A DNA stretch of 64,000 nt from an uncultured Candidatus Saccharibacteria bacterium. GTDB lineage: Bacteria; Patescibacteriota; 4484-211; JAGQKX01. The notes under the pieces are model-generated. The model saw only the letters and a program-made list of their open reading frames with translations. It did not search any database and was not told the DNA's origin. The stretch's first letter is position 1. Each line of letters starts with the position of its first letter. Location: the NCBI GenBank assembly GCA_964392315.1, contig CAYMOT010000003.1, positions 67,665-131,664 on the forward strand, written 5' to 3'. Position numbers and translations under genes: made by a program. Positions 3,181 through 63,258 of the stretch are shown in pieces.

Positions 3181-4506
3181 CTACCTCGCTTGGAGATGCC
3201 AATAAATAGTTTTTGTCCCGTCGGAATGATCTATCCTCACTCCAACACCACGTGTACCGGTTAACGAACAGGGGGTACCTTCTACCACCGAATACGCTGT
3301 ACCGGCTTTCGCCGCAAGAACGGGCGCCCCTTCCCCCGGCAATAGACTATCCGTTATATCAATACCGTTGTGTCCAGGCATCCCAAAGACACTCATATAC
3401 CATTCGTAATTTTCACCATAATTTTGCGAAACTCGCGGCGAGGCAAGTGGCCACTGTAATTCTCCGGAATCGAGGTAGGGGCGAGGGTTGACTGCAATGT
3501 TATTAATGTAATAGCCAAAATGCACATGCGGACCAGTAGAGCAGCCAGTATTTCCCAGATAGCCTATTACATCCCCCGGCTGGACAGTACCCAAGCTCAC
3601 TCCTTTCGCTGTTAGTGCTGCACGAATTGCTGCAATTTCCGATTCTATTTGCTTAATGAGTGTCTGATAATTTTTCTCTTCATTTTTGGTTTGTGCGAGT
3701 AGCCAATTCTGGGTTGACTGCTGCTTGCTCAGTGCTGCTTTCTGATTCTCTAAATAGGTACGTTTTTCCTCTAGCTGTGTTCTGAGCGTTTCTTTCTCAT
3801 TTTTGAAGGTCTCTAACTCTTGTGTACGTTTGGTATATTCGTCTTTTGTATCTCGAAGTTTATCCAAAAAGCGCATGTCTTCCTCCTGGAGACGCTCCAA
3901 ATAGGCGAAGCGCAGAACTGCGTCGTTGATATCTTCACTCTTCAAAAACACACCAATCTTTGGGACGAACTCATTCTGGTACGAATTTCGAACTCGCGCA
4001 TGATATGATCGTTCAAGCCCGCCAATACTATCTCCGAGTACACCTGTTTTAACAGAAAGGGATTCAATGTCACCTTCAAGTTGGACAACAAGTTCTTGTG
4101 TTTGGCCAATTTCGAGCATCGTGGCATTGATGTCGTATTCGGTGTATCGAATAAGGGTTGAAAGATAATTTAACTCACTAACTAAACTCTTTTCTCTATT
4201 TTTTGCGTCCTTCAATAATGCCTCAAGTCGTGCTCTTTCTGAACGGATATCCTCCAACCGCTCATACTGCTGCTGCACCGCATCAGTACCCAACAAATCT
4301 TCAATATGGTCCCCATCGTGTGCAAAGATCTGTCCGACTACGCCCGTAACAAACAACCCAATGCTTACTACACATACAACCAGTCCTACTACCACTGCAT
4401 GTGCATATTTGTTTATTTGTGTATTAGAGTATTTGCGTATTTGCATATTTGCCTGCCTGCGCAAACAGGCATATTTCTTAGACTCTGAGATGCTTCCAAA
4501 TCGCAA
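3181..4506 (-). CDS. Coiled-coil M23 (LytM) peptidoglycan endopeptidase, EnvC/PcsB-like FtsEX partner
   Basis: 441 aa. N-terminal TM segment, a long coiled coil, and a C-terminal M23 domain with intact HVHFGYY (HxH). It lies downstream of ftsE-ftsX on the same strand. The annotated N-terminus runs through a TATTTGCR repeat, so the true start is probably an internal Met. Confidence 0.8.
   Translation of the reverse strand: MRFGSISESKKYACLRRQANMQIRKYSNTQINKYAHAVVVGLVVCVVSIGLFVTGVVGQIFAHDGDHIEDLLGTDAVQQQYERLEDIRSERARLEALLKDAKNREKSLVSELNYLSTLIRYTEYDINATMLEIGQTQELVVQLEGDIESLSVKTGVLGDSIGGLERSYHARVRNSYQNEFVPKIGVFLKSEDINDAVLRFAYLERLQEEDMRFLDKLRDTKDEYTKRTQELETFKNEKETLRTQLEEKRTYLENQKAALSKQQSTQNWLLAQTKNEEKNYQTLIKQIESEIAAIRAALTAKGVSLGTVQPGDVIGYLGNTGCSTGPHVHFGYYINNIAVNPRPYLDSGELQWPLASPRVSQNYGENYEWYMSVFGMPGHNGIDITDSLLPGEGAPVLAAKAGTAYSVVEGTPCSLTGTRGVGVRIDHSDGTKTIYWHLQAR
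4400..4478. repeat. TATTTGCR octamer tandem-repeat element
   Basis: gtttatttgt gtattaga gtatttgc gtatttgc atatttgc in the ftsX/M23-peptidase spacer. Confidence 0.6.
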
Positions 4507-5370: not shown

Positions 5371-5460
5371 GACAATTAAGTAATTATCTAATAAACTAAT
5401 ACACAAATAATCCAACTGCTTAATTCGCCTATTAGATTATTTGTATATTTGTCTATTACT
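5371..5460. repeat. AT-rich intergenic repeat element related to the TATTTGCR family
   Basis: attagattatttgtatatttgtctattact between ftsE and ftsX; shares attagattatttg with the 7684 copy. Confidence 0.5.
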
Positions 5461-7683: not shown

Positions 7684-7746
7684 TATTATTTTATTTGTGT
7701 ATTAGTCTATCCGTCAATTAGTTTATTAGATTATTTGCTTATTTAC
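7684..7746. repeat. TATTTGYR octamer-repeat element
   Basis: ttatttgtgtattagtctat...attagattatttgcttatttactta. Confidence 0.55.
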
Positions 7747-8671
7747 TTAAAATCCCCTTCATCCCCCGATGTATCATTATCCCTCCAATTAGTAACCCCA
7801 CTGCCGGTAGTAAGTACATCACTATCCCACTGCTCGTCGCAGGCAGTCCATTTACCATGTGCTCACCGAGCGTAGTTCCACCCTTTGAGGTGCTCACCCC
7901 ATCAAGAATTTGCCCCTCTTCACATCCCTTGACTCGTACAAATGCGTCACGTGTTTGATTCTCTTCACCAAGTTCTTCCTGATAGCCAAATGGTTGCACC
8001 ACAACCCGATAGTATCCACAATTTTGTGGTTGCCAGGACAATTTGAGATTCGTTCGTTCATTGGGTGCCAATGCTATCTCATCGGTGATATGCACGTATA
8101 TTGGTTTGGTACCAAGTACAACACCACCATAGGGATAGTCACCATCCTCTGGGTTGGAAGTTTGATAGCAAAATTCCTCTGCTATCAGCGCACAATCCTT
8201 CGTATCGTAATACATAGTGCGAAGCGTATCCTCGCTTACTGCTTTTATTTCTGAATCAGGCTGACCATTAATGTAGGCGGTTCTCTGGTCATACGAAATA
8301 CCATGCATGGTCGAGTTCCATAGTTCGGTTACTTTGTAGACTTTTAGCTCAAAGGTATTGGCATGGGGGTCTGGGCTGTTGTTAACCACAAGTGTACGAA
8401 ACTCCACAGTGTCAGAGAGTGAATAGGTCTGCGGAGATGGACGATACCCAAATAGCACATCAGCTCTAATCGGATTTTCTTCAAGATTAGGGGTACCAAT
8501 TGATACCTCTCCAACAAATGGGATATTCACGGCATAGATAGAGCGAGAGAAAAATGAGGTCAGTGCAAGTATGAGAATAACGCTCAGCGCGAGAGGGACA
8601 GATCGCACAAAAAACTTTGTGCTGAACATACACGCATTATAGGGCATAGTGCTCAATAAGCAAATATGCAA
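7739..8671 (-). CDS. Hypothetical secreted protein with a C-terminal LPAVG-hydrophobic-basic tail
   Basis: 310 aa. The annotated start lies in a TATTTGCR repeat, so the likely start is MFSTKFF..., which reads as a signal peptide. The C-terminus LPAVGLLIGGIMIHRGMKG resembles a sorting signal with a non-canonical LPxxG. Confidence 0.5.
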   Translation of the reverse strand: MHICLLSTMPYNACMFSTKFFVRSVPLALSVILILALTSFFSRSIYAVNIPFVGEVSIGTPNLEENPIRADVLFGYRPSPQTYSLSDTVEFRTLVVNNSPDPHANTFELKVYKVTELWNSTMHGISYDQRTAYINGQPDSEIKAVSEDTLRTMYYDTKDCALIAEEFCYQTSNPEDGDYPYGGVVLGTKPIYVHITDEIALAPNERTNLKLSWQPQNCGYYRVVVQPFGYQEELGEENQTRDAFVRVKGCEEGQILDGVSTSKGGTTLGEHMVNGLPATSSGIVMYLLPAVGLLIGGIMIHRGMKGILSK

Positions 8672-9701: not shown

Positions 9702-10787
9702 ATGCGCAACCAATTTGGTGAAAGCGGCGAGCCACGCGTAACTACCGTAGAAGAAGCAGCCGGTCAAAACCTTGATCTCGGTGCAGAATTCTTTGATGGT
9801 CTCCCTGTCGCTGGAGAAGCTCCAGCCACCCTCGGCTACGAACCCTCAATCGACCAAATCAACGAGCGTGCTGCACAACTCGACCCCTATAACGAGCAGC
9901 CAGCTGATATTGTGTCTGCGCTAGCTCGAGAGCAGCTGGTAGCAGAGCACGATAAAGCCCTCCGAGATGCAGAGTTAGCGTTAGAAGCAACTCGTGCAGA
10001 GGAACAAAGACAAGAGCAGAACAGGCAAAAGGCCGAAGAGTGGAATGCAGCATATGAAGCATTGGTAACCCGAAACATAAACGAGTCACAAATGCTCTTA
10101 GATGGTATCGGCCTCGATGAGACCACTTGCACAGATGCGCAACTCTGGCTAAATATGGATAGCCTCAGGGGATACACTACCTGGCAACTACAAGAATTAC
10201 AAAAAAAGACCATGCGATGGTCAAGCAGAGCACGAGCAACCACATATGCTCCCGATGATTTACGAGAAGACATCCGTGTCGGTACAACAACATATGACGA
10301 AAAAGATAGAATGAGTGGACATATTCAAATAGATCGCTATGCCTCTGATGAAAGACGCAATTTCCAGATTCATCTGGTAGACCCTGACGTTAAGAAAGAA
10401 CAAGGACCTCATTTTCGCAATATGATGATACGTTATAAAGGCAAAGGGAAATTCGGATCCGTTGATTCGGGAAATCCGGAGCACACTCGTTTTTTTATAA
10501 ATATTGATGTATCCGGAAAGATCGGTTCATTAATGGAAGTATTACCTACGACAAACGAGGTTATTGGTGCATCTCCCGGTGCGTCACATATACAAGATCA
10601 AGAAGGAGAGCACAGAAAAGCCGAGCAAATACTTTACCGTTTGAAGCAAGAATTCGGAGTTGATCTCCAGCTAGAAGCACCAGAAGGAATGCAATTAGAC
10701 ATGCAAGCAACGATTGTTGACCTTATAGAACGTGCCGCAGAAGATCCAGATGCCATGCCTATCCCAAGATACAAAGTCATAGAATAA
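9702..10787 (+). CDS. Hypothetical protein
   Basis: The ORF opens at 9609, but the likely start is the ATG at 9702 (MRNQFGESGEP), preceded by TATAAT. About 361 aa with no motif I recognise. Confidence 0.5.
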   Translation: MRNQFGESGEPRVTTVEEAAGQNLDLGAEFFDGLPVAGEAPATLGYEPSIDQINERAAQLDPYNEQPADIVSALAREQLVAEHDKALRDAELALEATRAEEQRQEQNRQKAEEWNAAYEALVTRNINESQMLLDGIGLDETTCTDAQLWLNMDSLRGYTTWQLQELQKKTMRWSSRARATTYAPDDLREDIRVGTTTYDEKDRMSGHIQIDRYASDERRNFQIHLVDPDVKKEQGPHFRNMMIRYKGKGKFGSVDSGNPEHTRFFINIDVSGKIGSLMEVLPTTNEVIGASPGASHIQDQEGEHRKAEQILYRLKQEFGVDLQLEAPEGMQLDMQATIVDLIERAAEDPDAMPIPRYKVIE

Positions 10788-10990
10788 GCACGTCGTACTA
10801 CTATTTCAAAATCTACAGTTACGAAAATATTAAATATAAAGTCAATTTGAGATAGTCACAATTCCTCCCACTATACAGCCTCTAGTAGCGGTAAATATTC
10901 GTTTCAAGAATATCAGCCTAATAGGTGTAACTCCCTTTCACATCAAGACTTTCATCCTATTACATAATTAGGTTTGTTGACAAATACCCC

Positions 10991-11019
10991 TTGACATAAC
11001 TATAGGCTTATAGTAGAAT
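10991..11019 (+). promoter_or_regulatory. Near-consensus sigma70 promoter in a gene-free region
   Basis: TTGACA (10991-10996), a 17-nt spacer, then TAGAAT (11014-11019). No ORF lies downstream for about 680 bp. Confidence 0.4.
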
Positions 11020-11300
11020 AGATCCCATAAGAAACAACTAGCACATTAATCATCATTATTTGACGCTCAAAGGGAGAGGGCACGGAATCAAAAAACTATT
11101 ACTATGCTCGCTCCCCGCGGGCTTTTTGTATTATATGGGCTTAATATCAGCGGCAAGTAGCCACTATTTGCCAGTGATATTAATCACTTCCCAATCAGGG
11201 ATTGCACTTAAAAAATCAATTCGCTAGTTATTTACAAGGTCCTGAGCGATTCGACTGAGCTCATCGTCGAAGTCTTGCCGAAGGACGAACAGACTAGCCC

Positions 11301-11440
11301 ATTTGCAGGAACAAGAGAGGTAAGAATGAGAAATGAGAAATATGCACATGTGAAATGAAATTCATTTGCATATTTACACATTTGCTTATTTGCATATTTG
11401 TTTATTTGCTTATTCTCTTCTCTCTCGTTCCTGCAAACAG
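11301..11440. mobile_element. MITE-like palindromic element built around seven TATTTGCR-type octamers
   Basis: tttgcaggaacaagagag... (11301-11330) is inverted-complementary to ...ctctctcgttcctgcaaa (11411-11437), with about 21 of 24 positions matching. The core (11351-11412) is catttgca tatttaca catttgct tatttgca tatttgtt tatttgct tattctct. Confidence 0.45.
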
Positions 11441-11699
11441 AAAGTGAATAATAGCTTCGACCGTCTTGGGGTGCCAAGAAACGGATGTCCTCCGTTAACT
11501 GAGTTGAAATATACTCCTTCGAAGTTATACTAGCTTTCTCACTGTGGGAAAATAGACAGGTTGGCGTGCCTTGGCCACCTGTTTGCTGCTGCGCCCCCCA
11601 TTGCGGGATAATGCGCAGACCCCGCAAGGGGCGCACCAAAGGCAACAAGCACTCAACCGCGGCATCCGCCGCTTATTAGCTTCACCAAGGAGGTTTGAG

Positions 11700-12602
11700 A
11701 TGAAGCAATATCGTCTGTTCGCTCTGTTCCTGGCCAGCATGATTCTGCTGGCCCTTGCCGCCTGCGGCGGTATGGTCGTCGGGGATCCGACCAATCCGAC
11801 CGGATCCAACTTCAGTGCCGAAGGCGGCACCATCGTCGTCATCGTCCCCGAAGACTATCCCATTGAGCCGGCGTATGCCGACTTCAACGGGATCAAGTTG
11901 ACGGTCGACCGCGTTGCGGCGCAGGTGCCCGGGTTTGATCCCTCCTTGCTGATCGGCGACCCCGTGGTCGCGGAGGCGGCCGGGATCAAGTACTATAGCA
12001 TCTTCGCTGATCAGCAGAACGCGACGCTCGATATCAACGGCGCGGCCATCACCTCGCCGATCGAGTCGACGCAAGAACTGCTGGCGATTGCCGCCAACGC
12101 CGGAATGTTCCCCGTCGAGGGCGCCACGGCTCTCAGCGCCGCTCTCGACTTCGTCGAGGGCAGTGGGTGGAACTTCAACTTCGCGATCGTCTACCCGGGT
12201 TTTGACACGGCGGTCGACGAGTTGCCGTGGGTGGCGGCCGACTTGGCCGCTCAAGCGGCTGCGCAGCAGACCGCCGCCCAGCAGCCGGCGCCGGTGGCCA
12301 CGCTGAGCCCGCTCGGCCAGCAGCTGGTCGCCGCCGGCCAGCCCGCGGTGCCGGCCTCGCCGGCGCCATGGGAAGGGATCGATCTCACGGGGGACATGTT
12401 TTCCCCATTGGATTACGAGTCCGCCACCCAGGCGGCCCGCCGTATCGGCACGCAAGGGTACTCGACACGGTGCCTCAGTTTGTACTTTGAGGCAGTGGTG
12501 GAGTGGGATTTCGAGCCTAACGGCGACGGGAACCCGAACCACTGGGACTACTGGCGCACGGACGTCGAGATCCCCCTGCCGGCCGTCTGCCTGGCCAACT
12601 AG
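11700..12602 (+). CDS. Lipoprotein, Ala/Pro-rich, GC-rich foreign-looking gene
   Basis: The ORF track starts at 11571, but an AAGGAGG Shine-Dalgarno precedes the ATG at 11700. MKQYRLFALFLASMILLALAACGG is a lipoprotein signal with lipobox LAAC. GC is very high, and the antisense shadow ORFs here are spurious. Confidence 0.65.
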   Translation: MKQYRLFALFLASMILLALAACGGMVVGDPTNPTGSNFSAEGGTIVVIVPEDYPIEPAYADFNGIKLTVDRVAAQVPGFDPSLLIGDPVVAEAAGIKYYSIFADQQNATLDINGAAITSPIESTQELLAIAANAGMFPVEGATALSAALDFVEGSGWNFNFAIVYPGFDTAVDELPWVAADLAAQAAAQQTAAQQPAPVATLSPLGQQLVAAGQPAVPASPAPWEGIDLTGDMFSPLDYESATQAARRIGTQGYSTRCLSLYFEAVVEWDFEPNGDGNPNHWDYWRTDVEIPLPAVCLAN

Positions 12603-12654
12603 CGAATTCAGTCCCGCCTTCACCGGCGAGACACTAGCCCCTAAGAAGGGCACC

Positions 12655-12705
12655 AAAAAAGAAGAGCGTAGCTATCCGAGCTACGCTCTCTTCTTATTTG
12701 CTTTC
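12655..12705 (+). terminator. Rho-independent terminator after the lipoprotein gene
   Basis: agaagagcgtagct-atccg-agctacgctctcttct stem-loop followed by a T-rich tail (tatttgctttc). Confidence 0.65.
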
Positions 12706-12723
12706 AAATTTTGAAGATAAATA

Positions 12724-12835
12724 AGAGGAACTACTAAACTCCAATTGCACATTTAAATAATTTCATCGACACCTCCATCGAAGGATCTAGCCGATACACA
12801 TTGCTTCCTGATAGATAGTTGGATGGAGGTGTAGG
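12724..12835 (+). promoter_or_regulatory. Conserved 5' leader copy 1 with anti-SD/SD hairpin
   Basis: About 55 nt (gaggaactac...ccaattgcacatttaaataatttcatc) nearly identical to 13311-13365. cacctccatc (12770-12779) is perfectly complementary to gatggaggtg (12821-12830), which holds the Shine-Dalgarno immediately 5' of the ATG at 12836. Confidence 0.55.
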
Positions 12836-13228
12836 ATGTGGAAAAGAATTGTTGATTTTATTTTTGAATTCGTAAATACCATGGCCTTTCTAGTAATGGC
12901 TGTGGCTATATTCGGTATGGCTGATGTCCAGATCGTTGCGGTAACCGCGGATTCGTCCGATGTTACTGTGACGTTCCGCGGGCAAGACCGTAGTATTGGC
13001 AACAACAGCTACGGTTTGATCGCAACGAATGTTCCCTTGTGGGATCTGGACGCCATCCAGGTCCAGATCGAGGGCAACCCTGAGTGGGTCGCCACCCAGG
13101 TTACCTATCCGAAGATCCTTCGGGTATTTGGGGTACATGGGTGCCTCGACCTGCAAGGTGTTGCGGAGGACGCCGTCGAACAAGAAATTACCGACGTCAT
13201 ATGCAGAATTACCTACACAGGTAGGTAG
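12836..13228 (+). CDS. Small membrane/secreted hypothetical protein
   Basis: 130 aa with an N-terminal hydrophobic segment; preceded by the conserved leader. Confidence 0.55.
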   Translation: MWKRIVDFIFEFVNTMAFLVMAVAIFGMADVQIVAVTADSSDVTVTFRGQDRSIGNNSYGLIATNVPLWDLDAIQVQIEGNPEWVATQVTYPKILRVFGVHGCLDLQGVAEDAVEQEITDVICRITYTGR

Positions 13229-13249
13229 CCTGCAAGAGACATAAACAGC

Positions 13250-13290
13250 AAGAAGGTGTGGAACCCACACCTTCCTTCTCTTTTGTTTTC
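13250..13290 (+). terminator. Rho-independent terminator
   Basis: gaaggtgtgg-aaccc-acaccttc hairpin followed by cttctcttttgttttc. Confidence 0.65.
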
Positions 13291-13310
13291 AATCACTTGA
13301 AAGCAGACGA

Positions 13311-13410
13311 GAGGAACTACTGAATTCCAATTGCACATTTAAATAATTTCATCAACGCCTCCACCAAGATCCTAGATCTGCTATGTGTTTTGGGATTTTA
13401 GTGGAGGTTT
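13311..13410 (+). promoter_or_regulatory. Conserved 5' leader copy 2 with anti-SD/SD hairpin
   Basis: Shares the conserved 55 nt with copy 1. cctccac (13359-13365) pairs with gtggagg (13401-13407) directly upstream of the ATG at 13411. The cat/gatg to cac/gtgg difference is compensatory and preserves the stem. Confidence 0.55.
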
Positions 13411-13830
13411 ATGATGAGACAAAGACATGGGTGGTTACTAACTTTCGCCTTACTAGCGCTTGTACTCGCCCTGGCGCAGGTGGGCGAAACACTTGTCCCC
13501 AAGGACAAGATATTCAGCGATGAATTCTATACGCTCCCTGCAGTAGAGAATACAGTCCGCCTAAACGTGAGAGGCATAGGCGAGGGAACGTATCAGATCC
13601 TCGGCTTCTGGGATGAAGCCCCTTGGAAGTTCGAGGAAAACAACGAAGGGGTTGTCGGGTATATACCCAGCCGTCACCCCATGATCGCGGTAAACGGACA
13701 GTGGACCGCAATTACTCTTCGGATCATTGGCGATACCGAGTACGTCGTCATGTTCGACAATAATTACCGGTATCACGTGGAAGAAGAGAGTTTGACTAAT
13801 GGGGTAATCGTCACGATCACCCACTATTAA
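13411..13830 (+). CDS. Secreted hypothetical protein
   Basis: 139 aa with signal peptide MMRQRHGWLLTFALLALVLALAQV. Confidence 0.6.
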   Translation: MMRQRHGWLLTFALLALVLALAQVGETLVPKDKIFSDEFYTLPAVENTVRLNVRGIGEGTYQILGFWDEAPWKFEENNEGVVGYIPSRHPMIAVNGQWTAITLRIIGDTEYVVMFDNNYRYHVEEESLTNGVIVTITHY

Positions 13831-13874
13831 TAGTATCACCGGCGAAACGACAATGCCGGGAAAGGAGATAAGAC

Positions 13875-14330
13875 ATGAAACGTTTGCTTCTTTTTGCTGG
13901 CCTACTGCTTCTGGGTATAGCCATTGGTGCGGCCGGAGGCTACGGCGTCGGCGTTCCCGTCGGGGAGGATCGGGCGTTCGACAAGACTGCCCAGTACCTC
14001 CACCAAGGCGGCACGCCCCCGTGGGCCGGCCAGGGCAATGAGGGCCTGGCCCTGTGCATCACTCTCACCGAAGGTGAGGATGCAGGGGCCCGTTGCCTCA
14101 CAGAAGTGGACGAGGAGCAAGCGGAGGAAGAGGCACCGTCCCCAGCCAACAACAATAGCGGTTCGCCCACGCCACAGACTTCGCCCACGGCACTGCCGAC
14201 CGTGGACTTGCATATTACGATCCTGTCACCGGCAGTCCCGACGCAAGTGGCAGCGACCCCAACTATCGCCTCGTCGGCGACCCCCTCGCCGACCGCGACA
14301 GCTCGTCCCACCCGGGACACAGGCGACTAA
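13875..14330 (+). CDS. Secreted Pro/Thr/Ala-rich hypothetical protein
   Basis: 151 aa. Signal peptide MKRLLLFAGLLLLGIAIGAAGG and a low-complexity PT-rich C-terminus; GC-rich. GGAGA Shine-Dalgarno upstream. Confidence 0.6.
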   Translation: MKRLLLFAGLLLLGIAIGAAGGYGVGVPVGEDRAFDKTAQYLHQGGTPPWAGQGNEGLALCITLTEGEDAGARCLTEVDEEQAEEEAPSPANNNSGSPTPQTSPTALPTVDLHITILSPAVPTQVAATPTIASSATPSPTATARPTRDTGD

Positions 14331-14331
14331 C

Positions 14332-14369
14332 GAGAGCGTGGCCAAGTGAACAACTTGGCCACGCTCTCA
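14332..14369 (+). terminator. 16-bp perfect stem-loop after the island's last gene
   Basis: gagagcgtggccaagt-gaaca-acttggccacgctctc. No U-tract follows, so it may be a GC-type terminator or a stability element. Confidence 0.45.
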
Positions 14370-14686
14370 CGCATCAGCTCTAAACCCACATCACAAAAAT
14401 ACACTGCATTCTATACTGTAAAAATTAAGAGAGTACTCTCACAGGAGAACGACTATGTTTAAGTTATTCGTAAGAGACAAATTGCCTGAGCATCAGGCCC
14501 TATTAGGTGGTTAAGATACGACAAACGACACAGTTTACCAAATCATTTTTGAAAGCTACCCTACAAACTTCAAAACATACAATATCCGTACCTATTTGTT
14601 AGTAACTTCGTATACTTTGCACCTGCTTGAAACCAGCACCTTTTATTGTTATAATTAGGTTCATCACGATGACCAAGCTAAGCAGC

Positions 14687-15189
14687 CTAAGGTTTCGACC
14701 GACCGCTGATCTTGGTCTTTTTTATTTGTAAGCTTTCTTTCAATAAATCTATTCTGACAACGTATTCATTGAATCTCCTTAATAGGCTAGAAAACTTTTT
14801 GTTTGGTACCATCAACCGAAGTAACTTATCTTTTCCTTCCAAATATTCTATCAAGCAATGAAAATCTCCATCGCCCGTTGCAATAATTGCTTTATTATAG
14901 CTTTTGTAGTGAATCATCGTGTGCAGCACTAACTCTGCGTCGACATTTCCTTTTACAGTACCGTCAGGTAATTCTAACGTAGGCTTGAATATCAAAATAA
15001 AACCGCACTCTTGTAAATGCGTATACAAAAACTCATTACCTGTCTCACATGTCCTATAAACACATACGCCTTAATGACACTGTATTTATTTCGTAGATAC
15101 TGACGAAATTTACTCCAATCCAAAATCCAACCCTGTGAACGGATACCAAGATTGACGTTTTGGCTATCAATAAACGCGTAGTTAGACAT
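14687..15189 (-). pseudogene. NYN-domain (LabA-like) nuclease gene disrupted by a frameshift
   Basis: ORFs 14992..15189 (N-terminal part, ...FIDSQNVNLG...) and 14687..15028 (C-terminal part, ...GNVDAELV...ATGDGDFHCLIEYL...) overlap in different frames. Together they form one NYN domain of about 170 aa. The shift falls near an A-rich run at about 14990-15010. Confidence 0.5.
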
Positions 15190-29757: not shown

Positions 29758-32055
29758 TTACGTCGCCGCATTTATTACTTTTGACATTAACTGGACAAGC
29801 CGCCCAATCCAAGATAGGGTTTGCCCAAGACCTCTTTCACTGCTTCCAATACCTCCACCGACTTGATTAAATAACCCCATAAGATCATCCATGGTAAGCT
29901 CAGGATTCGCCTCCGCCGCTGCAATCAATTCCTCAATCTGTGCGTCTTGTTCAGACTGCTCGCCAGCTTCCTCGACTAATTGATCCCTTCGCTCAGTAAC
30001 TTTCTTTATTATTTCATTATTTTTATCTCGAGCTGCTTCTAATATAGTACGCACTGGCGTTAACTGTTCTTGACGCTCCTCTGGCAGGTTAGCAATCATT
30101 TGAATTCCTGCCTCTATATTTGCCTGCTGAACTGATAACTCCTGAAGAACATTATTTAACTCAGGAATTGTATATTCGTTTAACTTTCTCATAGAGAAAC
30201 GTTCGGGCCGAGATGCTGGAAGTACAGGCGCTTCTGCAACAGGTCGTCTTTCTTCTCCTCGGGGCCTTACTTCATCCGCAGCCTCAGTTTGAGCAGCCCT
30301 TTCGTTTGTAACTGTCTGAGCCTCACCTCCCGCTTCTGCTACTGTGGCTCTTGCTGTACCAGTTGCTCCAGTCTCCGATACGCGACCCGCCCTAGACGCT
30401 ACTGGAGATTGTGCTTCTGCAGTAGCTTGTCCTGCAGCTGTGACACCTTCGCCCTTATTCATAAATCCATGCTGCTGTGCTTCATCAGGCGTCATGGTAA
30501 GTGGTAGTCTTCGACCATCGGAACCATAAAAAGTAATCTTCCCGCCTTTTATAGGACCCATGTATGCATCACCAACCTCTAACTGAGCCTTTACTTCTCT
30601 ACCCACTCGTCCAAAAGCAGTCTGCTCTTCAAGTGGGATAGCTTCCCCGCGGGCAATTCGATTTCTATAGCTTGCGCCACGAGCCCCTGCACCTAACACG
30701 GTGTCTGTCACTTCACTAGGAGACATCCTTCTGAGAAGGGTATTATTCGGGCCTATAACATCGTACCGCCTGGGTAATCCATCTCTCCCAAGAACTTCAC
30801 GTAATTGAAACTTTCCCGATCCCAGGTTTGCCTCTAATGATCTTTGTATTTGTTCCGGATTATTTTTGTTGGCCTTTATCAACTCTGCGTATGCCTTTCT
30901 TTCTGCCTTACGAGGAAAACCCTGAGGTATTTCTGTTTCTCGACCGAGCCGCTCTACTGCACGCACAACTCGTTCCCCCGCCGCTCGTGCGCCTCCTTGT
31001 ACTGCTTCTCCCGCTCTTCGCACTTGTCCTCCAGTAAACTCGGCTTGCTCACGAACTGCTCGTGCTTCATGACGTACACCTTCCTGAACCCTACGTCCGA
31101 CTGCACTGGCAGCACCTCCCACTGCCTCTCCGGCTCTGCCTACTTGCCCACTGGTAAACTCCGCCTGCCTTCTTACCGCATCCCGTTCATTCTGCACCCC
31201 TGCTCTCACCCGATCTCCTACTGCTCGTGCTCTCCCTTGCACCGCTTCTCCCACCCTTCGTACTCGTTCCCCTGTCTTCCCATCACCTGTAGCTCCCGCC
31301 TGATTCTCCATTTTCCCTGCTGTTCCCCCATACACCACGTTATCCAAATTTGCTGGCTTCATTGCCTCTTGCACTCTCCCTCTCACTGCTCCTGCAGCTC
31401 CTTGTACCGCTTCTCCCGCTCTTTGCACCTGTCCTCCAGTAAACTCCGCCTGCCTTCTTACCGCATCCCGTTCGTTCTGCATCCCTGCTCTCACCCGATC
31501 TCCTACTGCTCGTGCTCTCCCTTGCACCGCTCCTGCTACCTCTCGTACTCGCTCCCCTCCTCGACTTTGGCCAGGTGTAATTGTCATACTTCCTGCTTTC
31601 CATTCACTGCCAGCAACACCATACTGCTCGCTTCTAGGTGTTGTTGTAGCTCCTGTTGTAGCCATTGGTTCCCTACCAGCCATTGCTGCATTCCAACCTT
31701 CTGCAGCAGTATTACGAGCCGCATGAAATGTCTCGCTTCCTAAATCTTGAGTTGGTTCCGCTGATGCAGAAACGACTGGAGGTGGTGTAGTTTCAGCTCG
31801 TTTAGGGGTAGTAGCCGTAGGTAAACTCGGTTCGAACTGCCTATAAATTTCCCCCATTTCAGCCCCGGTACCATACCCCGGACCCATCTCTGTCCCTCTT
31901 TGAAAACCCGCCAACGCTCCCATTGCCGAATCAGTATCACCAGCTGCTGTCATAACTGCCGCAGCTTCGGACTCTGCCGTTACAGGTATTGCGGGTGACG
32001 CAGTTACAATTTCCGGTCCTAGGTTTTGTTCAGCTGGTCCTGGAGCATTTCTCAT
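29758..32055 (-). CDS. Large low-complexity protein with internal 95-aa tandem repeat (765 aa)
   Basis: Ala/Gly/Arg-rich. The repeat GERVR.VG.AVQGRARAVGDRVRAG.QNERDAVRRQAEFTGGQV.RAGEAVQG occurs two to three times. The gene ends 40 bp upstream of secA on the same strand. Confidence 0.6.
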   Translation of the reverse strand: MRNAPGPAEQNLGPEIVTASPAIPVTAESEAAAVMTAAGDTDSAMGALAGFQRGTEMGPGYGTGAEMGEIYRQFEPSLPTATTPKRAETTPPPVVSASAEPTQDLGSETFHAARNTAAEGWNAAMAGREPMATTGATTTPRSEQYGVAGSEWKAGSMTITPGQSRGGERVREVAGAVQGRARAVGDRVRAGMQNERDAVRRQAEFTGGQVQRAGEAVQGAAGAVRGRVQEAMKPANLDNVVYGGTAGKMENQAGATGDGKTGERVRRVGEAVQGRARAVGDRVRAGVQNERDAVRRQAEFTSGQVGRAGEAVGGAASAVGRRVQEGVRHEARAVREQAEFTGGQVRRAGEAVQGGARAAGERVVRAVERLGRETEIPQGFPRKAERKAYAELIKANKNNPEQIQRSLEANLGSGKFQLREVLGRDGLPRRYDVIGPNNTLLRRMSPSEVTDTVLGAGARGASYRNRIARGEAIPLEEQTAFGRVGREVKAQLEVGDAYMGPIKGGKITFYGSDGRRLPLTMTPDEAQQHGFMNKGEGVTAAGQATAEAQSPVASRAGRVSETGATGTARATVAEAGGEAQTVTNERAAQTEAADEVRPRGEERRPVAEAPVLPASRPERFSMRKLNEYTIPELNNVLQELSVQQANIEAGIQMIANLPEERQEQLTPVRTILEAARDKNNEIIKKVTERRDQLVEEAGEQSEQDAQIEELIAAAEANPELTMDDLMGLFNQVGGGIGSSERGLGQTLSWIGRLVQLMSKVINAAT
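31040..31620 (-). repeat. Intragenic tandem direct repeat, period about 285 bp
   Basis: Near-identical stretches such as aaactccgcctgccttcttaccgcatcccgttc...cccgatctcctactgctcgtgctctcccttgcaccgc occur at about 31156 and 31441. Confidence 0.7.
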
Positions 32056-33816: not shown

Positions 33817-33902
33817 GAATAATCAAATATGCAAATAGCTAATACGAAAATGAATGTATTAATTTGCTTATTTGCATATTGGTATTATTTGCTTATTAAA
33901 TC
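33817..33902. repeat. TATTTGCR octamer-repeat element
   Basis: caaatatgcaaatagc...aatttgcttatttgcatattggtattatttgcttattaaatc. Confidence 0.6.
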
Positions 33903-34345: not shown

Positions 34346-35713
34346 TTATCTCCGTGGAGTGATTACATCTTTTCCTACATATTGTTGGAGAACATCCGGT
34401 ACCCGTACCGAACCATCTGGCTGTTGATACGTATCAAGGATTGCTGCAATGGGACGAGTACTCGTGATCGCAGTCGCCGAAATAGTATGCGGATGTTCTA
34501 GCGAGCCGTCTTCGGTGCGATAACGAATATTGAGCCGCCTTGTATGAAACTGCGCGAGATCCGAATTTGACTGCGTTTCCATCCACGTTTGTTCGCTTGG
34601 CATCCATACCTCCACATCAAATTTACGATATGTGGGCATCCCCACATCCCCTGTGCACATTTCGAGTACATGATAGGTCAGTCCGAGCTCTTGCAGCAAT
34701 TCTTCCTCTATAGCAAGTGCTTCCTGCATGTAATCCTGTGACGTCTGCGGTGTCGTAAAATAAATCATCTCGACTTTATCAAACTGATGTACTCGTTTGA
34801 TGCCGCGCGTATCTCTACCCCAACTCCCCGCTTCACTTCGGAAACACGCAGAAATACCCGCATATTTTAACGCCATGTCGTCGGTTAATTCGAGAATATC
34901 ATCCATATGATACGACACAATCGCTTGCTCTGACGTGCCCGTCAAATAGAGCTGTGTACCATCCTCCACCTTTTCTTCATCAGCCTGTATTGCGTAAATA
35001 CTTGCAACCTCTGAAGGAAAGTACCCTGTACCATACAGCGGACGCTCACGAACGAGTACTGGTGGATACATTGGTGTAAATCCACGCTGTACCAATTTCT
35101 GGAGAGCCAGACTCATGAGACCCCAATAGAGCAACGCCCCTTCGTTTTTGAGATAATAGAATCTGCTACCAGAGACTTTGCCGCTTTTCTGGTTATCAAT
35201 CACGTCAAGACTTTCGGCGATGTCGATATGGTGACGAGCATCAAAGTCAAACGTTTTCTTCTCACCTACGACTTTAATTTCTAAATTACCACTATCATCA
35301 GAGCCTACAGGCATAGAAGGATGGGTGATATTTGGCATCCAATCCATGCGCTCTTGCCACTCTTTTTTTGCAACGTCAAGCTCTGCATCTTTATCGTGAA
35401 TTTGTTGCTTCAGTTGTGTAGCTTGGGCTATCAATTCAGGACTTTTGTCCTGAGCGATTTGCGCAGTAATCGTATTCTGTTCCGCACGAAGGCTCTCAAG
35501 TTCTTGGAGAAGTTTTCTCCGCAACGTATCAACGGCGAGTAATGCATCAACATCAGCTACCTTAGGATCTATCCCACGGTTAATAATATTTTGTTTAAGT
35601 TCTTCGGGATTCTCCCGAATGTATGCAATGTCTAACATGATAAATAAATGTTTGCCATATTCATTTGCGTATTTGCATATTTGTATATATTTACATATTC
35701 TCTTTAGAGCCAT
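34346..35713 (-). CDS. serS: Seryl-tRNA synthetase
   Basis: N-terminal coiled-coil arm, the class II core, and MLDIAYIRENPEEL as the canonical start. The probable true start is at 35638, because the annotated start runs into an upstream TATTTGCR repeat. Confidence 0.85.
   Translation of the reverse strand: MALKRICKYIQICKYANEYGKHLFIMLDIAYIRENPEELKQNIINRGIDPKVADVDALLAVDTLRRKLLQELESLRAEQNTITAQIAQDKSPELIAQATQLKQQIHDKDAELDVAKKEWQERMDWMPNITHPSMPVGSDDSGNLEIKVVGEKKTFDFDARHHIDIAESLDVIDNQKSGKVSGSRFYYLKNEGALLYWGLMSLALQKLVQRGFTPMYPPVLVRERPLYGTGYFPSEVASIYAIQADEEKVEDGTQLYLTGTSEQAIVSYHMDDILELTDDMALKYAGISACFRSEAGSWGRDTRGIKRVHQFDKVEMIYFTTPQTSQDYMQEALAIEEELLQELGLTYHVLEMCTGDVGMPTYRKFDVEVWMPSEQTWMETQSNSDLAQFHTRRLNIRYRTEDGSLEHPHTISATAITSTRPIAAILDTYQQPDGSVRVPDVLQQYVGKDVITPRR
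35646..35700. repeat. TATTTGCR octamer-repeat element
   Basis: catttgcg tatttgca tatttgta tatattta catattct between the serB-like gene and serS. Confidence 0.6.
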
Positions 35714-37386: not shown

Positions 37387-39486
37387 TCAGGACATTTGTT
37401 TGTATACATCTATTAGAAACTGTATATGTTCCTCTATCGTTATGCCCATCAACTCCACACCCCTCATGATTTCTGCTCGATCCACCTTCGCAGCAAACGA
37501 AGCGTCCTTAAACTTTTTCATTGCGGAACTGACTTTCATGTTTTCAAACTTCTCTTCCCGCATGAGAGAATATGCATAGAGTAATCCCGCTAATTCGTCG
37601 GTCGCCACAAGCGTCTTTGCGAGTAAGGTCTGCGGCTGTACTCCGGTACGATGCTGTGCATGCGCTGCAACCGCGTGCCGAAGCGCCTCAGGGTATCCCC
37701 ACTCTTTGAACCAATCCAAGCTTTTGGTTGGATGGTCGTCTGGGTATTGGAAATAGTCCAAATCATGCAGCAATCCTGTTAAGTACCATAAGTCTTTGTG
37801 CATTCCATACTTTTCGGCGTATGCCTCTAGCCCAAGTGCCACCATGCGCGCGTGCAGTCGCTGGTAGGAATCCTGAACGTACTCTTCAAGAAGCGTTGCT
37901 GCTTCTTCACGCGTTGGAAGACCAGTAGCATCTTCCTTCTGAGATGTAATAGTCGGTTTATGCGCTGGTAATATATCGTGATACAATTTTTGCGTGTTTG
38001 CATCGTATTCTGCTTTCATAAGGGGGAATAATGTCCCTTCACGCGCGGTAACGTCCTCAAAAAACCAAAATACCCGCTCACTATGCCCATACCCTGCCGT
38101 AGGTGGCATACCATATTCAAGCATTTCTACATAATCGATATCTAGCATCTGTGCTTCTTCGTCCCCCGTATCCCGCAGAGACTGCTGCTCTACAAAACGC
38201 TCCAGTTGGTCTAATGGATCGTTGAGCTCGCTATATCCATTTGCAAGCTCACTACCTGCTAAGAGTACGTGAAACCGTTGCGTCAAGCGAGGGTCATCTT
38301 CTTGGGATTTTGCAAGCGGTGACATGAACTTTGGCTCATTTACCAAAAATGCTGGCCCGCTTATTGTCTTGCGGATAACCTTCCACAGATTATCAATGAG
38401 TCGATTTCTATTCACATCTCCCGAAAGCACCACGCCTTGTTGTCTTAGAACTTCGGTCATTCGTTCTTCTGAATCTTCAAAGATATCAATGCCAAGCTTT
38501 TCCTGAATCACCGCTACATAGTCGATTTCTTCCCATTCGTCCTGTAAGTCAAAGATGTGCCCACGGGTTTGGAATTTAGTCGTTCCATAGACCTTCTGAG
38601 CGACAAAACGAAACAACTCCTGGGTGAAAGTCATCGCTTTTCGTGAATCCGCATATGCCCAATACCATTCTAGTTGGGTGTATTCTTGTAGGTGCTCGTC
38701 GCTCACCCCTTCGTTACGGAAATTCGGACCTAATGTAAAAATTTTTTCAAATCCTCCGCCAATCAATCGTTTTTGATAGAGTTCGGTTGAGATACGCAGG
38801 TAGAGCGTCTCATCAAGATCGTTATGATAGGTTTCAAAAGGGCGGGCATCAGCGCCTCCGGTTACATGTTCAAGTACCGGAGTCTCCACTTCTACAAAAC
38901 CATTCCGCTGCATAAATTCCCGATTTGCCTGCCAGAACCTCGACTTACGCAAAAACCGCTCCTTCACGTCAGGGTTTATCCATAGGTCTATATACCGCCT
39001 ACGGTAGCGCTGTTCTTTATCCTCTAAATGCACTGGATGAGGACGGAGAGATTTTGTCAGCATCCGAATGGTCTGCGCCAAGACTGATACCTCACCCGTA
39101 CGTGTTTTAGTTACCGTACCATGAACTTCGACAAAATCTCCCAGATCTATCAGATACATATCTTCCCACCCAAGAAATCCTTTTTCATGATCTTCTTGCA
39201 CGGTATCGGTGCGAATATAAATTTGAATTGTTCCTGAGGCATCCTGAAGGTCAGCAAACATAACTGAGCCGTGTTCACGTTGCGCAGTAAGCCGCCCAGC
39301 GACTGTTACTTCTGTGCCCTCTAATACGTCAAATTGTGTGTGAATGTTGTTATTCTCATAGTTTTTTTGAGAATGTGCGGGATACGGATTTATACCAAGT
39401 GCTCTGAGTTTATTGGCATGCGCCAGTCGTGTTGCTCTTTGGTCTACTAACGTGCTACCGGTTGATTGGTCATGCATATGCCCCAT
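37387..39486 (-). CDS. lysS: Lysyl-tRNA synthetase (class II) fused to a C-terminal YqeK-like HD-domain hydrolase
   Basis: 699 aa. OB anticodon-binding domain VTVAGRLTAQREHGSVMFADLQDASGTIQIYIR and the class II core. The C-terminal ~190 aa carry H...HD...H..H...D (RLHARMVALG...LLHDLDYF...RHAVAAHAQHRTG...ATDEL), which aligns with the YqeK HD pattern. Confidence 0.75.
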   Translation of the reverse strand: MGHMHDQSTGSTLVDQRATRLAHANKLRALGINPYPAHSQKNYENNNIHTQFDVLEGTEVTVAGRLTAQREHGSVMFADLQDASGTIQIYIRTDTVQEDHEKGFLGWEDMYLIDLGDFVEVHGTVTKTRTGEVSVLAQTIRMLTKSLRPHPVHLEDKEQRYRRRYIDLWINPDVKERFLRKSRFWQANREFMQRNGFVEVETPVLEHVTGGADARPFETYHNDLDETLYLRISTELYQKRLIGGGFEKIFTLGPNFRNEGVSDEHLQEYTQLEWYWAYADSRKAMTFTQELFRFVAQKVYGTTKFQTRGHIFDLQDEWEEIDYVAVIQEKLGIDIFEDSEERMTEVLRQQGVVLSGDVNRNRLIDNLWKVIRKTISGPAFLVNEPKFMSPLAKSQEDDPRLTQRFHVLLAGSELANGYSELNDPLDQLERFVEQQSLRDTGDEEAQMLDIDYVEMLEYGMPPTAGYGHSERVFWFFEDVTAREGTLFPLMKAEYDANTQKLYHDILPAHKPTITSQKEDATGLPTREEAATLLEEYVQDSYQRLHARMVALGLEAYAEKYGMHKDLWYLTGLLHDLDYFQYPDDHPTKSLDWFKEWGYPEALRHAVAAHAQHRTGVQPQTLLAKTLVATDELAGLLYAYSLMREEKFENMKVSSAMKKFKDASFAAKVDRAEIMRGVELMGITIEEHIQFLIDVYKQMS

Positions 39487-42508: not shown

Positions 42509-42553
42509 GAGTGAGCGATGTGTAGATTAGTTATGAAAGCGAGTGAGATAAAA

Positions 42554-42700
42554 ATGTGCAGGCATCAACGTAAATGTCCGAAATGTAGCACATCCTGTTG
42601 GTGCGATTTGATGACAAACATTTTTATTCTTACGAGCGGAAACTTGACTTTCCAAAGATTTAGGCTTACTTATTTCGCGCTTTTTCTAGCAAGTCATTAA
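42554..42700 (+). CDS. Small Cys-rich peptide, copy 1
   Basis: MCRHQRKCPKCSTSCWCDLMTNIF... The N-terminal 24 aa and the upstream gcgagYgagata...aaaATG are conserved with the copy at 57928. Synonymous differences (ccg/cct, aca/acg) suggest the ORF is coding. Confidence 0.4.
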   Translation: MCRHQRKCPKCSTSCWCDLMTNIFILTSGNLTFQRFRLTYFALFLASH

Positions 42701-57866: not shown

Positions 57867-57927
57867 ACGATATTAGTACTAGAAGCCATTTCAAAACCTG
57901 ACAATGGACGCGAGCGAGATAGAAAAA

Positions 57928-58032
57928 ATGTGCTGGCATCAACGTCGATGTCCTAAACACAACACGATATGCTGGTGCGATTTGATGACGAACATTTTTT
58001 CCTATCTCTACAAGCGAACCTCTTGGTTTTGA
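57928..58032 (+). CDS. Small Cys-rich peptide, copy 2 (34 aa)
   Basis: MCWHQRRCPKHNTICWCDLMTNIFSYLYKRTSWF; conserved with copy 1 at both the amino-acid and nucleotide level. Confidence 0.4.
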   Translation: MCWHQRRCPKHNTICWCDLMTNIFSYLYKRTSWF

Positions 58033-62525: not shown

Positions 62526-63206
62526 TTATATAACTGCTTCTTGTAATTCTTGAATCGCGGCTAGTGGATCTTTATCTGCGAAAATATCACTTCCTACCGC
62601 AAGTATGGATGCACCAGCTTCAACCAGTTGTGCAGCGTTTTCACTATTTACACCACCATCTACTTCTATATCAACGTGAGGCGCCAATTCTTTTAGCTTC
62701 CTAATGCGCGCAAATATATCTGGATTGAGCGGTGTCCCTCCTTGGATTCCAACCTCATGAGCCATCAAAAGCACTACATCCAAAGATGGTAACAGCGACT
62801 TTTCTAAATGAGAGAGTGACGTGTCCAAATTTAATGCAAGACCAACACTTAATCCATACTCAGCTACCTTTTCCACAAACGCTACTTGATCTTCCATTTC
62901 TTCGATATGCCCGATAATTCTCTCTACCCCTGCCTCTGCCCACGCACGCACTTGTGAAGCGGGATCAACTACCATTAAGTGCACTTCGAGGCCTACCTGT
63001 GTATCTATTTCCCGTATATACCGCGCTTCACAACAACTCACTTCGGGCGAGAAATATCCATCCACATAATCGATCTGTACACGATCAACATGTTGTTCGA
63101 CTAGCTTAAGCTTCTCTTCAAAATCGTCGATGTCATCAGTTAAAATTGCCGGAATTATTTGTATAGACATAGTAAGCATTAATAAACAAATATCCAAATA
63201 AACCAA
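62526..63206 (-). CDS. rpe: Ribulose-phosphate 3-epimerase family
   Basis: 226 aa TIM-barrel. IIPAILTDD, ...HLMVVDP... and a C-terminal GG..N pattern are present. Confidence 0.65.
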   Translation of the reverse strand: MVYLDICLLMLTMSIQIIPAILTDDIDDFEEKLKLVEQHVDRVQIDYVDGYFSPEVSCCEARYIREIDTQVGLEVHLMVVDPASQVRAWAEAGVERIIGHIEEMEDQVAFVEKVAEYGLSVGLALNLDTSLSHLEKSLLPSLDVVLLMAHEVGIQGGTPLNPDIFARIRKLKELAPHVDIEVDGGVNSENAAQLVEAGASILAVGSDIFADKDPLAAIQELQEAVI

Positions 63207-63258
63207 TAAGCAAATGCATTATTTCAATTTACTTATGTGTACTATTTGCTTATTCTTA
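63181..63258. repeat. AT-rich repeat element (TATTTGCR family)
   Basis: aataaacaaatatccaaataaaccaataagcaaatgcatt...actatttgcttattcttaacc between rpiB and rpe. Confidence 0.5.

Follow-up and report, generated by a model that had tools for sequence, protein, structure and literature searches.

Two copies of one module in a strain-variable island

The window analysed here (the whole 64-kb stretch of contig CAYMOT010000003.1 given above) is a bacterial chromosome segment of ~43% G+C, whose genes include those for SecA, SerRS, LysRS, RF-1, FtsEX, a type I restriction-modification system and the pentose-phosphate pathway. Its housekeeping set is small, its transketolase is split, and many of its proteins belong to no Pfam family, a gene content that hints at an organism of the CPR/Patescibacteria kind. 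Our subject is an element that occurs twice in an island of four plus-strand genes at 11571-14330, where the coding regions reach 50-65% G+C as compared with 43% for the genome: a structured leader, lying before the genes that start at 12836 and 13411 (genes 1 and 2 below), whose last part is a stem-loop that takes in the Shine-Dalgarno sequence (SD) and the start codon of the gene that follows. The features of the island are listed here, with protein lengths in amino acids (aa) and with T denoting a terminator-like stem, H2 an AU-rich hairpin, and H3 the hairpin over the ribosome-binding site (RBS).

11700-12602, plus strand: lipoprotein gene (300 aa)
12663-12689, plus strand: T1, GC-rich terminator-like stem 3' of the 300-aa lipoprotein gene (terminator scan and fold)
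12689-12729, plus strand: H2 copy 1, AU-rich hairpin in which the pyrimidine tail UCUUCUUAUUUG pairs with AAAUAAGAGGA (z-score -4.9)
12730-12763, plus strand: spacer or platform, copy 1, AU-rich and predicted to be single-stranded (ACUACUAAACUCCAAUUGCACAUUUAAAUAAUUU), with conserved primary sequence
12764-12838, plus strand: H3 copy 1, the proposed RBS lock (fold)
12836-13228, plus strand: gene 1, encoding a 130-aa protein with an N-terminal hydrophobic segment
13252-13274, plus strand: T2, GC-rich terminator-like stem 3' of gene 1 (terminator scan and fold)
13272-13316, plus strand: H2 copy 2, of the same architecture with another stem sequence (UUCCUUCUCUUUUGUUUUCAA / UUGAAAGCAGACGAGAGGAA; z-score -4.7)
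13317-13346, plus strand: spacer or platform, copy 2 (sequence comparison with copy 1)
13347-13419, plus strand: H3 copy 2, the proposed RBS lock (fold)
13411-13830, plus strand: gene 2, encoding a 139-aa protein with a signal-peptide-like N-terminus; an ORFan
13875-14330, plus strand: gene 3 (151 aa), with its own exposed SD, 44 nucleotides (nt) 3' of gene 2
14334-14366: T3 stem, 3' of gene 3

Both intergenic regions present their parts in the same order, namely T, H2, a platform of ~30 nt of AU-rich single strand, H3 and then the gene. That near-identical leaders precede genes 1 and 2 had been reported in a first-pass annotation of this DNA, and this duplication is confirmed: a 27-nt core, CCAATTGCACATTTAAATAATTTCATC, is present at 12741 and at 13327 and nowhere else in the window (0 expected from shuffles), and a repeat finder returned a 67-nt pair, 12711-12777 and 13297-13363, of 85% identity. 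What did not hold was its description as a single 55-nt leader. Folding of the whole intergenic region brought out H2, the 3' arm of which, AAGAGGAAC, makes up the first bases of that supposed unit, and the last 17 nt of the unit are the 5' arm of H3. The two copies are 89% identical over the platform and this 5' arm, 67% identical over H2 and 50% identical in the interior of H3. On the plus strand of the 64 kb, the arrangement CCTCC...GGAGG followed after 3-10 nt by a start codon is found at these two sites only. When the window and ~115 kb of related contigs (~180 kb) were searched with a covariance model comprising H2, the spacer and H3, no further full copies emerged, the matches being the known sites, their orthologues, and H2-only matches before a different leader.

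As regards the 3' ends of the island genes, these are GC-rich perfect hairpins; T3 has no U-tail, and the tails of T1 and T2 are pyrimidine-rich rather than U-rich and are sequestered in H2.

A stem-loop over the initiation region of both genes

H3 is a stem-loop of 63-75 nt. In copy 1, ACACCUCCAUC (12769-12779) pairs with GAUGGAGGUGU (12822-12832) over 11 base pairs (bp), which include the SD GGAGG at 12825-12829, and CAUC at 12764-12767 pairs with GAUG at 12835-12838, in which 12836-12838 is the AUG. In copy 2, GCCUCCAC (with CCUCC at 13358-13362) pairs with GUGGAGGU (with the SD at 13403-13407) over 8 bp, the helix continues into an 11-bp inner stem, and UUUCAUCA pairs with UGAUGAGA, covering AUG 13411-13413 and 13414-13416. 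The first-pass annotation was therefore right that a CCUCC segment pairs with each gene's own GGAGG; the pairing with the AUG it had not noticed. The 5' arm, CAUC-RAC-N-CCUCCA, is an anti-RBS that spans both SD and AUG, and since its CAUC pairs with the GAUG of which the start codon is part, no portion of the initiation region is left outside the stem.

When both hairpins were folded, as had been advised, they proved more stable than their shuffled counterparts, with minimum free energies of -27.0 (copy 1) and -27.2 kcal/mol (copy 2), z-scores of -3.34 and -5.65, and not one of 200 shuffles folding as well. Across five sequence variants, the z-scores of H3 range from -3.3 to -5.7, and every variant retains 24-30 pairs with interiors that are 50-59% identical. 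In an admittedly crude survey of RBS accessibility over 63 gene starts of the window, with start codons picked automatically and imperfectly, the two genes ranked first and third among the least accessible. For all five variants, GGAGG has a computed probability of being unpaired of 0.00 at 20-75 °C and of 0.01 at 85 °C. Moreover, the plus strand folds better than the minus strand in all 11 comparisons (five H3 and six H2 variants) because of G.U pairs, and this asymmetry argues for a plus-strand RNA structure rather than a DNA palindrome. In both genes, the SD and the AUG are thus sequestered in a significant sense-strand helix, as is characteristic of RBS-sequestering stem-loops in 5' untranslated regions (UTRs).

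Maintenance of the pairing in related strains

Related contigs were retrieved from ~20 public sequencing runs by exact-protein look-ups; their flanks are 89-100% identical to the window, and they yield five distinct leader versions. The first-pass annotation had singled out a cat/atg versus cac/gtg difference between the two copies as compensatory. This change is real, and the same pair (alignment columns 96 and 141) is U-A in the window, U.G in L037 and C-G in L032 and L001. The interior of H3 in L001 is of unrelated sequence and still forms a 30-pair stem. By RNAalifold and pair counting, 95.7% of cells are paired, a share that falls to 44-53% if the partners are displaced by 1-3 columns. 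Both sides have changed in 4 of the 35 pairs of H2 and H3, one of the four lying in H3 and three in H2, where U.G wobbles are also conserved; H2 is present in all variants, with z-scores of -4.7 to -8.7 when folded together with T. The formal covariation evidence is modest, and in this small sample of six close relatives it suggests that the pairing has been kept in evolution by compensatory and wobble changes.

Seen across strains, the platform is less constant than the near-identical pair of copies here would suggest. The copy-1 platform of L001 and L037 is of a second type (type B), ~75% identical, which keeps ACTA, AATT(A)GCAC, AAATTTCATCGAC and the structure, and copy 2 of L001 remains of the first type (type A). 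Because orthologous copy-1 platforms are only ~75% identical, paralogy or gene conversion best accounts for the near-identity of the two copies here, a few motifs and the anti-RBS being under constraint in addition.

Exchanges between strains also indicate how the parts belong together. In L032 and L041, the gene that follows the 130-aa gene encodes a different protein, of 138 aa, in place of the 139-aa one, and its leader has no RBS hairpin; T and H2 are retained up to GAGAGGRAC despite the exchanged downstream cassette. Since H2 stays with the upstream gene, it is to be regarded as belonging to the 3' end of that gene, and the exchange junction lies just after it. L003 has no 130-aa gene, and there the leader of the 139-aa gene follows a different upstream gene, with a hybrid H2 and a hybrid spacer, as would be expected of homologous recombination between repeated modules.

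Further homologous leaders, which the first-pass annotation had proposed to look for, were found in the close relatives only. A scan with the pattern TTTCATCRACNCCTCCA-N25-55-TGGAGG(T) gave 1 match in the GTDB species genomes and 17 in the JGI metagenomes (collections neither of which includes the source genome), none of them with the upstream conserved block. By eye many of these matches look like gene starts on the reverse strand (GGAGG-N-ATGAAA), and we treat all of them as chance. The element is restricted to a few closely related metagenomic strains. Likewise, homologues of the 130-, 139- and 300-aa proteins occur in this lineage only, such that there are no distant loci at which leaders could be compared. 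No paper on SD sequestration in the Candidate Phyla Radiation came up in a literature search.

A proposed translational lock and its possible openers

The structure of the element, the conservation of that structure and its plus-strand sense are demonstrated by the folds and comparisons described above. The reading that we favour, at a probability of roughly 0.55, goes further and holds that each intergenic region is a modular plus-strand expression unit, in which H3 keeps translation constitutively locked until something actively opens it, and that the module has been duplicated or gene-converted. In such a unit T is followed directly by the AU-rich H2, in which the pyrimidine tail of the terminator is paired with the purine run AAAUAAGAGGA, and ~30 nt of AU-rich single strand, conserved in sequence, separate H2 from H3. 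The 5' arm of H3 is a near-perfect mimic of the ribosome's anti-SD and of an anti-start-codon and pairs with the strong SD (GGAGGU) and the AUG of the downstream gene; with a helix of -27 to -35 kcal/mol over its RBS, the mRNA would by default not be translated. De Smit and van Duin are said to have established the thermodynamic relation between the stability of an RBS helix and initiation, and by that relation a helix of this stability should permit no spontaneous initiation, so that an active step would be needed. The two copies would have arisen by duplication or gene conversion of the module before unrelated cassette genes of a strain-variable island; indeed, the module is common to two unrelated proteins with N-terminal hydrophobic segments.

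Neither heat nor a small ligand would then suffice for translation, which would call for active opening, and two kinds of opener are the most plausible. First, a double-strand-specific nuclease of the RNase III type could cut the 20-30-bp stem and so free its 3' arm. In the E. coli adhE 5' UTR and in phage T7 and lambda leaders, RNase III cleavage of an occluding duplex exposes the RBS. As in those leaders, the RBS here lies in a long, near-continuous duplex of about two helical turns, and with 24-30 predicted pairs in all variants H3 provides the ~20 bp or more of near-continuous duplex that is typical of them; its dimensions (20-30 bp) are suitable. Unlike in those systems, no RNase III gene is seen in the 64-kb window, and the likeness is one of geometry alone. 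Second, a protein or an RNA could bind the conserved single-stranded platform together with the 5' arm. In the rpoS leader (opened by DsrA, RprA or ArcZ) and in hla (opened by RNAIII), a stem in the 5' UTR inhibits translation until a trans-acting RNA opens it. With these our element shares a long 5' UTR hairpin, an upstream arm on the SD and AUG, a predicted default off-state and a single-stranded stretch upstream; it differs from them in that no partner RNA was found in the window, in its far more stable and near-perfect stem, and in having no homology or Rfam match to them.

A third precedent, ribosome standby as in the tisB +42 mRNA and the MS2 coat gene, works for hairpins that open transiently. 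Here too the structured RBS is directly preceded by AU-rich sequence without structure, but at about -30 kcal/mol the helix is expected to stay shut practically all of the time, and the products, at 130-139 aa, are not small toxins.

Several points weigh against the lock. It is known here from sequence and predicted folds alone. The covariation comes from 6 sequences and 4 pairs in a few closely related strains, the outer stem is for the most part invariant, and the 3' side of the stem would be conserved regardless of pairing because it is the SD. No opener has been found: no RNase III site could be predicted, and the suggestion of the first-pass annotation that the leader is a small-RNA target gained no support in the 64-kb window, where no complementary partner did better than shuffles, including the two small-RNA-like units flanking the island when they were matched by RNAduplex against platform plus 5' arm. 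Nor could a convincing sigma-70 promoter be placed. A sigma-70 scan of the conserved block on the plus strand reported nothing, and the best candidate found manually, TTGAAR-18 nt-TAAAYT, has 8 of 12 matches, which is below the scan threshold, and is weak and inconsistent across variants. Finally, so stable a hairpin might just as well have its role in stability or processing instead of regulation.

On the question of how the locked genes would be transcribed, H2 is informative. It has signatures at the RNA level and forms only in read-through transcripts, for which reason expression is probably at least partly polycistronic.

Alternative explanations

The main rival to the lock, and one compatible with it, sees an intercistronic element for mRNA processing or stability rather than a switch; we regard it as possible, if on the unlikely side. 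The island would be transcribed as one long RNA, in which the AU-rich spacer between the hairpins would be the site of an endonuclease (of the RNase E, Y or J type, or the NYN-domain nuclease encoded next to the island). After cleavage, the upstream cistron would have its 3' end shielded by H2 and the downstream cistron its 5' end by H3, and the occlusion of the RBS would be a side effect or would be relieved by the processing itself. The layout of hairpin, AU-rich single strand and hairpin is what this explanation expects. The plus-strand RNA signatures of H2, with conserved U.G wobbles and compensatory pairs, also speak for it, given that H2 can form only in transcripts that read through T, which implies that read-through RNA must matter. 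Three further points are consistent with it: H2 remains with the upstream gene where another cassette has taken the downstream position, no good internal promoter was found, and the island has the NYN-domain gene beside it. However, a protective 5' hairpin has no need of an SD or AUG, and the precise, conserved complementarity to both points at translation. Furthermore, the T stems with their pyrimidine tails resemble terminators, and the NYN-domain gene is frameshifted in this strain.

Alternatively, the duplicated block could act at the level of DNA, as a promoter or operator in an AT-rich region to which a repressor or activator binds, with the hairpin being incidental. Palindromes for such a site are present (CAATTG, ATTTAAAT and TTTCAA-N-TTGAAA), and the block lies directly 3' of a terminator, where a promoter would be expected. 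The unpaired spacer is where primary-sequence identity is highest (89% overall and 27 of 27 positions in the core), and all variants have TTGAAR with a TA-rich hexamer 18 nt later. We nevertheless consider this distinctly improbable, as it leaves unexplained the anti-RBS arm, the long stems with diverged sequence and the G.U asymmetry; the candidate hexamers are weak and variable (TAAACT, TGAATT, TATTTA, TATTCA), and the spacer is only ~75% conserved in the type-B orthologues. A promoter or operator can in any event coexist with a lock on the RBS rather than replace it.

That the hairpins are DNA recombination sites at cassette boundaries, in the manner of integron attC sites that fold as single-stranded DNA, is very improbable. 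Such sites would account for the gain and loss of genes from strain to strain (L003; L032 and L041), and H3 does have the look of them, being an imperfect inverted repeat of ~60-75 nt that preserves structure more than sequence. Against this, the exchange junction lies just after H2, at GAGAGGRAC and outside H3; attC sites are defined by R''/L''-L'/R' boxes (RYYYAAC ... GTTRRRY), extrahelical bases and an associated IntI integrase, and there are no such boxes in 12764-12838 or 13347-13419 and no integrase or recombinase family among the neighbours; the minus strand folds worse in every variant, unlike a DNA cruciform; and the 3' arm is placed exactly at SD spacing from the AUG. Homologous recombination between repeated modules suffices for the hybrid leader. 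Similar considerations apply to the dispersed intergenic repeats (REP/BIME, BOX, Correia elements and miniature transposons of the MITE type), which like attC sites are structured, imperfect palindromes and can lie between cassette-like, strain-variable genes. Dispersed repeats come in many scattered copies with terminal inverted repeats and are independent of the start of the adjacent gene. In contrast to these, there are only two copies in 64 kb and none beyond the orthologues in the ~115 kb of related contigs, the SD of the gene itself serves as their 3' arm, and the strand asymmetry points to a plus-strand RNA; as a dispersed repeat the element was rejected.

Two of the mechanisms that the first-pass annotation had itself put forward for an SD-sequestering switch fare no better. 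The plus-strand stem that sequesters the SD and AUG stands, but neither the RNA thermometer nor the ligand-responsive riboregulator does, and together with a leader-peptide attenuator of the ermC/cat type, all three of which employ such a stem, we find them barely probable. RNA thermometers (ROSE, fourU, the prfA leader) have marginal stability, with mismatches and G.U or U.U pairs, and melt at 30-45 °C. H3 resembles them in pairing both SD and AUG within a 5' UTR hairpin and departs from them in its predicted closure at 85 °C: with the SD 0-1% unpaired at 20-85 °C, the helix does not melt in silico within the physiological range. A riboswitch is unlikely for a simple stem-loop of this kind, the interior of which is 50-59% identical between variants and differs completely between the copies, so that there is no conserved loop or ligand pocket. 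Rfam was searched with the whole window at the gathering score and with 10700-14800 at E<=1, and returned only miRNA and CRISPR-repeat noise, in agreement with the earlier remark that the element belongs to no named family. Attenuation in ermC, cat and cmlA requires a translated leader open reading frame (ORF) that overlaps the 5' arm. In our case as in theirs, a conserved leader lies before an SD-sequestering hairpin, but no conserved, SD-preceded leader ORF accompanies it: the plus-strand upstream ORFs are TTG-started, 1-8 codons long and without an SD, none is conserved between types A and B, and none enters the anti-SD.

Least credible of all is a tiny minus-strand peptide (MKLFKCAIGV or MKLFKCAIGIQ) with its own GGAGG-N5-ATG, for although both copies have a 10-11-codon ORF with GGAGG 5 nt before its ATG, and the bidirectional-looking terminator T1 follows it, any arm complementary to an SD and an AUG will of necessity read as an SD and an ATG on the opposite strand, the frame is not conserved between types A and B (type B gives MKFLIRC, an indel shifting the frame and leaving the nucleotide motif AATT(A)GCAC intact), the minus-strand structures are weaker, and the minus strand offers no promoter or gene context.

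The island proteins and their surroundings

The first-pass annotation had described the products as small secreted proteins, and this is borne out in so far as genes 1 and 2 encode two small proteins with N-terminal hydrophobic segments that are apparently secreted; they are unrelated, with no alignment between them. None of the four island proteins falls in any Pfam family at threshold, the sole match being a sub-threshold one of the 130-aa protein to IgGFc_binding (16.8 bits against a cut-off of 25.6). Among 5.8 billion proteins clustered at 90% identity, the 130-aa protein has 3 clusters, the 139-aa protein 1 and the 300-aa lipoprotein 5, all of them within this lineage, and the 139-aa protein matches only itself among 1.84 billion representatives. 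An AlphaFold model of the lipoprotein, built from 5 sequences, has a mean pLDDT of 63.5, which is too low for a fold search. Gene 3 is probably co-transcribed with gene 2 because of the 44-nt gap between them and its own exposed SD.

Between strains the island is 65-80% identical with flanks of 89-98% identity, and genes have been gained, lost and swapped. The NYN-domain gene adjoining it (14687-15189, minus strand), a predicted RNase, is frameshifted here into parts of 113 and 65 aa; it is also split in L004, and intact at 166 aa in L001, L002, L003 and L005. A GC-rich 5' region of ~240 nt (11440-11699) precedes the lipoprotein gene and is kept in L001 and L032; with its many local inverted repeats it may be a structured leader, and it has no Rfam match.

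Two compact units, 10985-11130 and 14627-14725, flank the island and are candidate small RNAs. Each has a strong sigma-70-like promoter (TTGACA-17-TAGAAT and TTGAAA-17-TATAAT with a TG, respectively) and an intrinsic terminator 60-110 nt 3' of it, and within the unit at 10985-11130, GCACATTAATCATCATTATTTGA is similar to the leader platform when both are read in the same sense. A long inverted repeat at 11296-11440 (TTTGCAGGAACAAGAGAGG ... CTCTCTCGTTCCTGCAAA), a short way upstream of the island, encloses an array with an 8-bp period. In its counterparts, at 7900-8020 of L001 and 275-410 of L032, the stems are kept and the loop is a different AT-rich sequence containing AATTGCAC and TAAATAATT, motifs shared with the leader platform. 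Many intergenic regions contain short arrays of this 8-bp period (ATTTGCNT / TATTTGYN), which occur on both strands, at 4402-4452, 11364-11414, 33862-33897 and 63181-63215, and also at 5414-5457, 7684-7751 and 35646-35689.

Elsewhere in the window, a 76-nt repeat with palindromic ends (AAAAATGT...ACATTTTT) occurs at 42550-42625 and 57924-57999, 15 kb apart and with 82% identity. An ORF at 29758-32055 (765 aa, no Pfam domain) contains sequence that repeats every 120 nt (and 285 nt) at 30968-31558 on the minus strand, a region of 55% G+C with a strong C-skew. The class II lysyl-tRNA synthetase at 37387-39486 (minus strand) carries a C-terminal HD domain.

Implications

Occlusion of an RBS by a helix in the 5' UTR is textbook knowledge, and the element described here matches no described family. 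Its practical value is limited, as the principle is known and the strains that carry it are a few near-identical metagenomic ones. If functional, however, it would be an undescribed cis-regulatory RNA without an Rfam family, in a poorly known, probably uncultivated bacterium with a small genome, and it would control lineage-specific secreted or membrane proteins of a strain-variable island, the type of gene that is expected in interactions with a host or with neighbours. Taken together, the extreme stability of the lock and the reuse of the same anti-RBS before unrelated genes imply an active, shared unlocking step, and it is this step that would be the interesting part to find.

One may carry the proposal further, to a view that we offer as speculation and consider unlikely, namely that the module is a portable “locked expression cassette” of a small-genome lineage, whose platform and anti-RBS serve as the address for one dedicated trans-acting unlocking factor that co-activates unrelated ORFans. 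Such a factor could be a protein, a small RNA, or a nuclease such as the adjacent NYN-domain protein, and it would switch on jointly several fast-evolving ORFan secreted proteins of the high-GC island, for example upon contact with a host cell. If this were true, locked cassettes would constitute a post-transcriptional regulon made by copying a leader, not a promoter.

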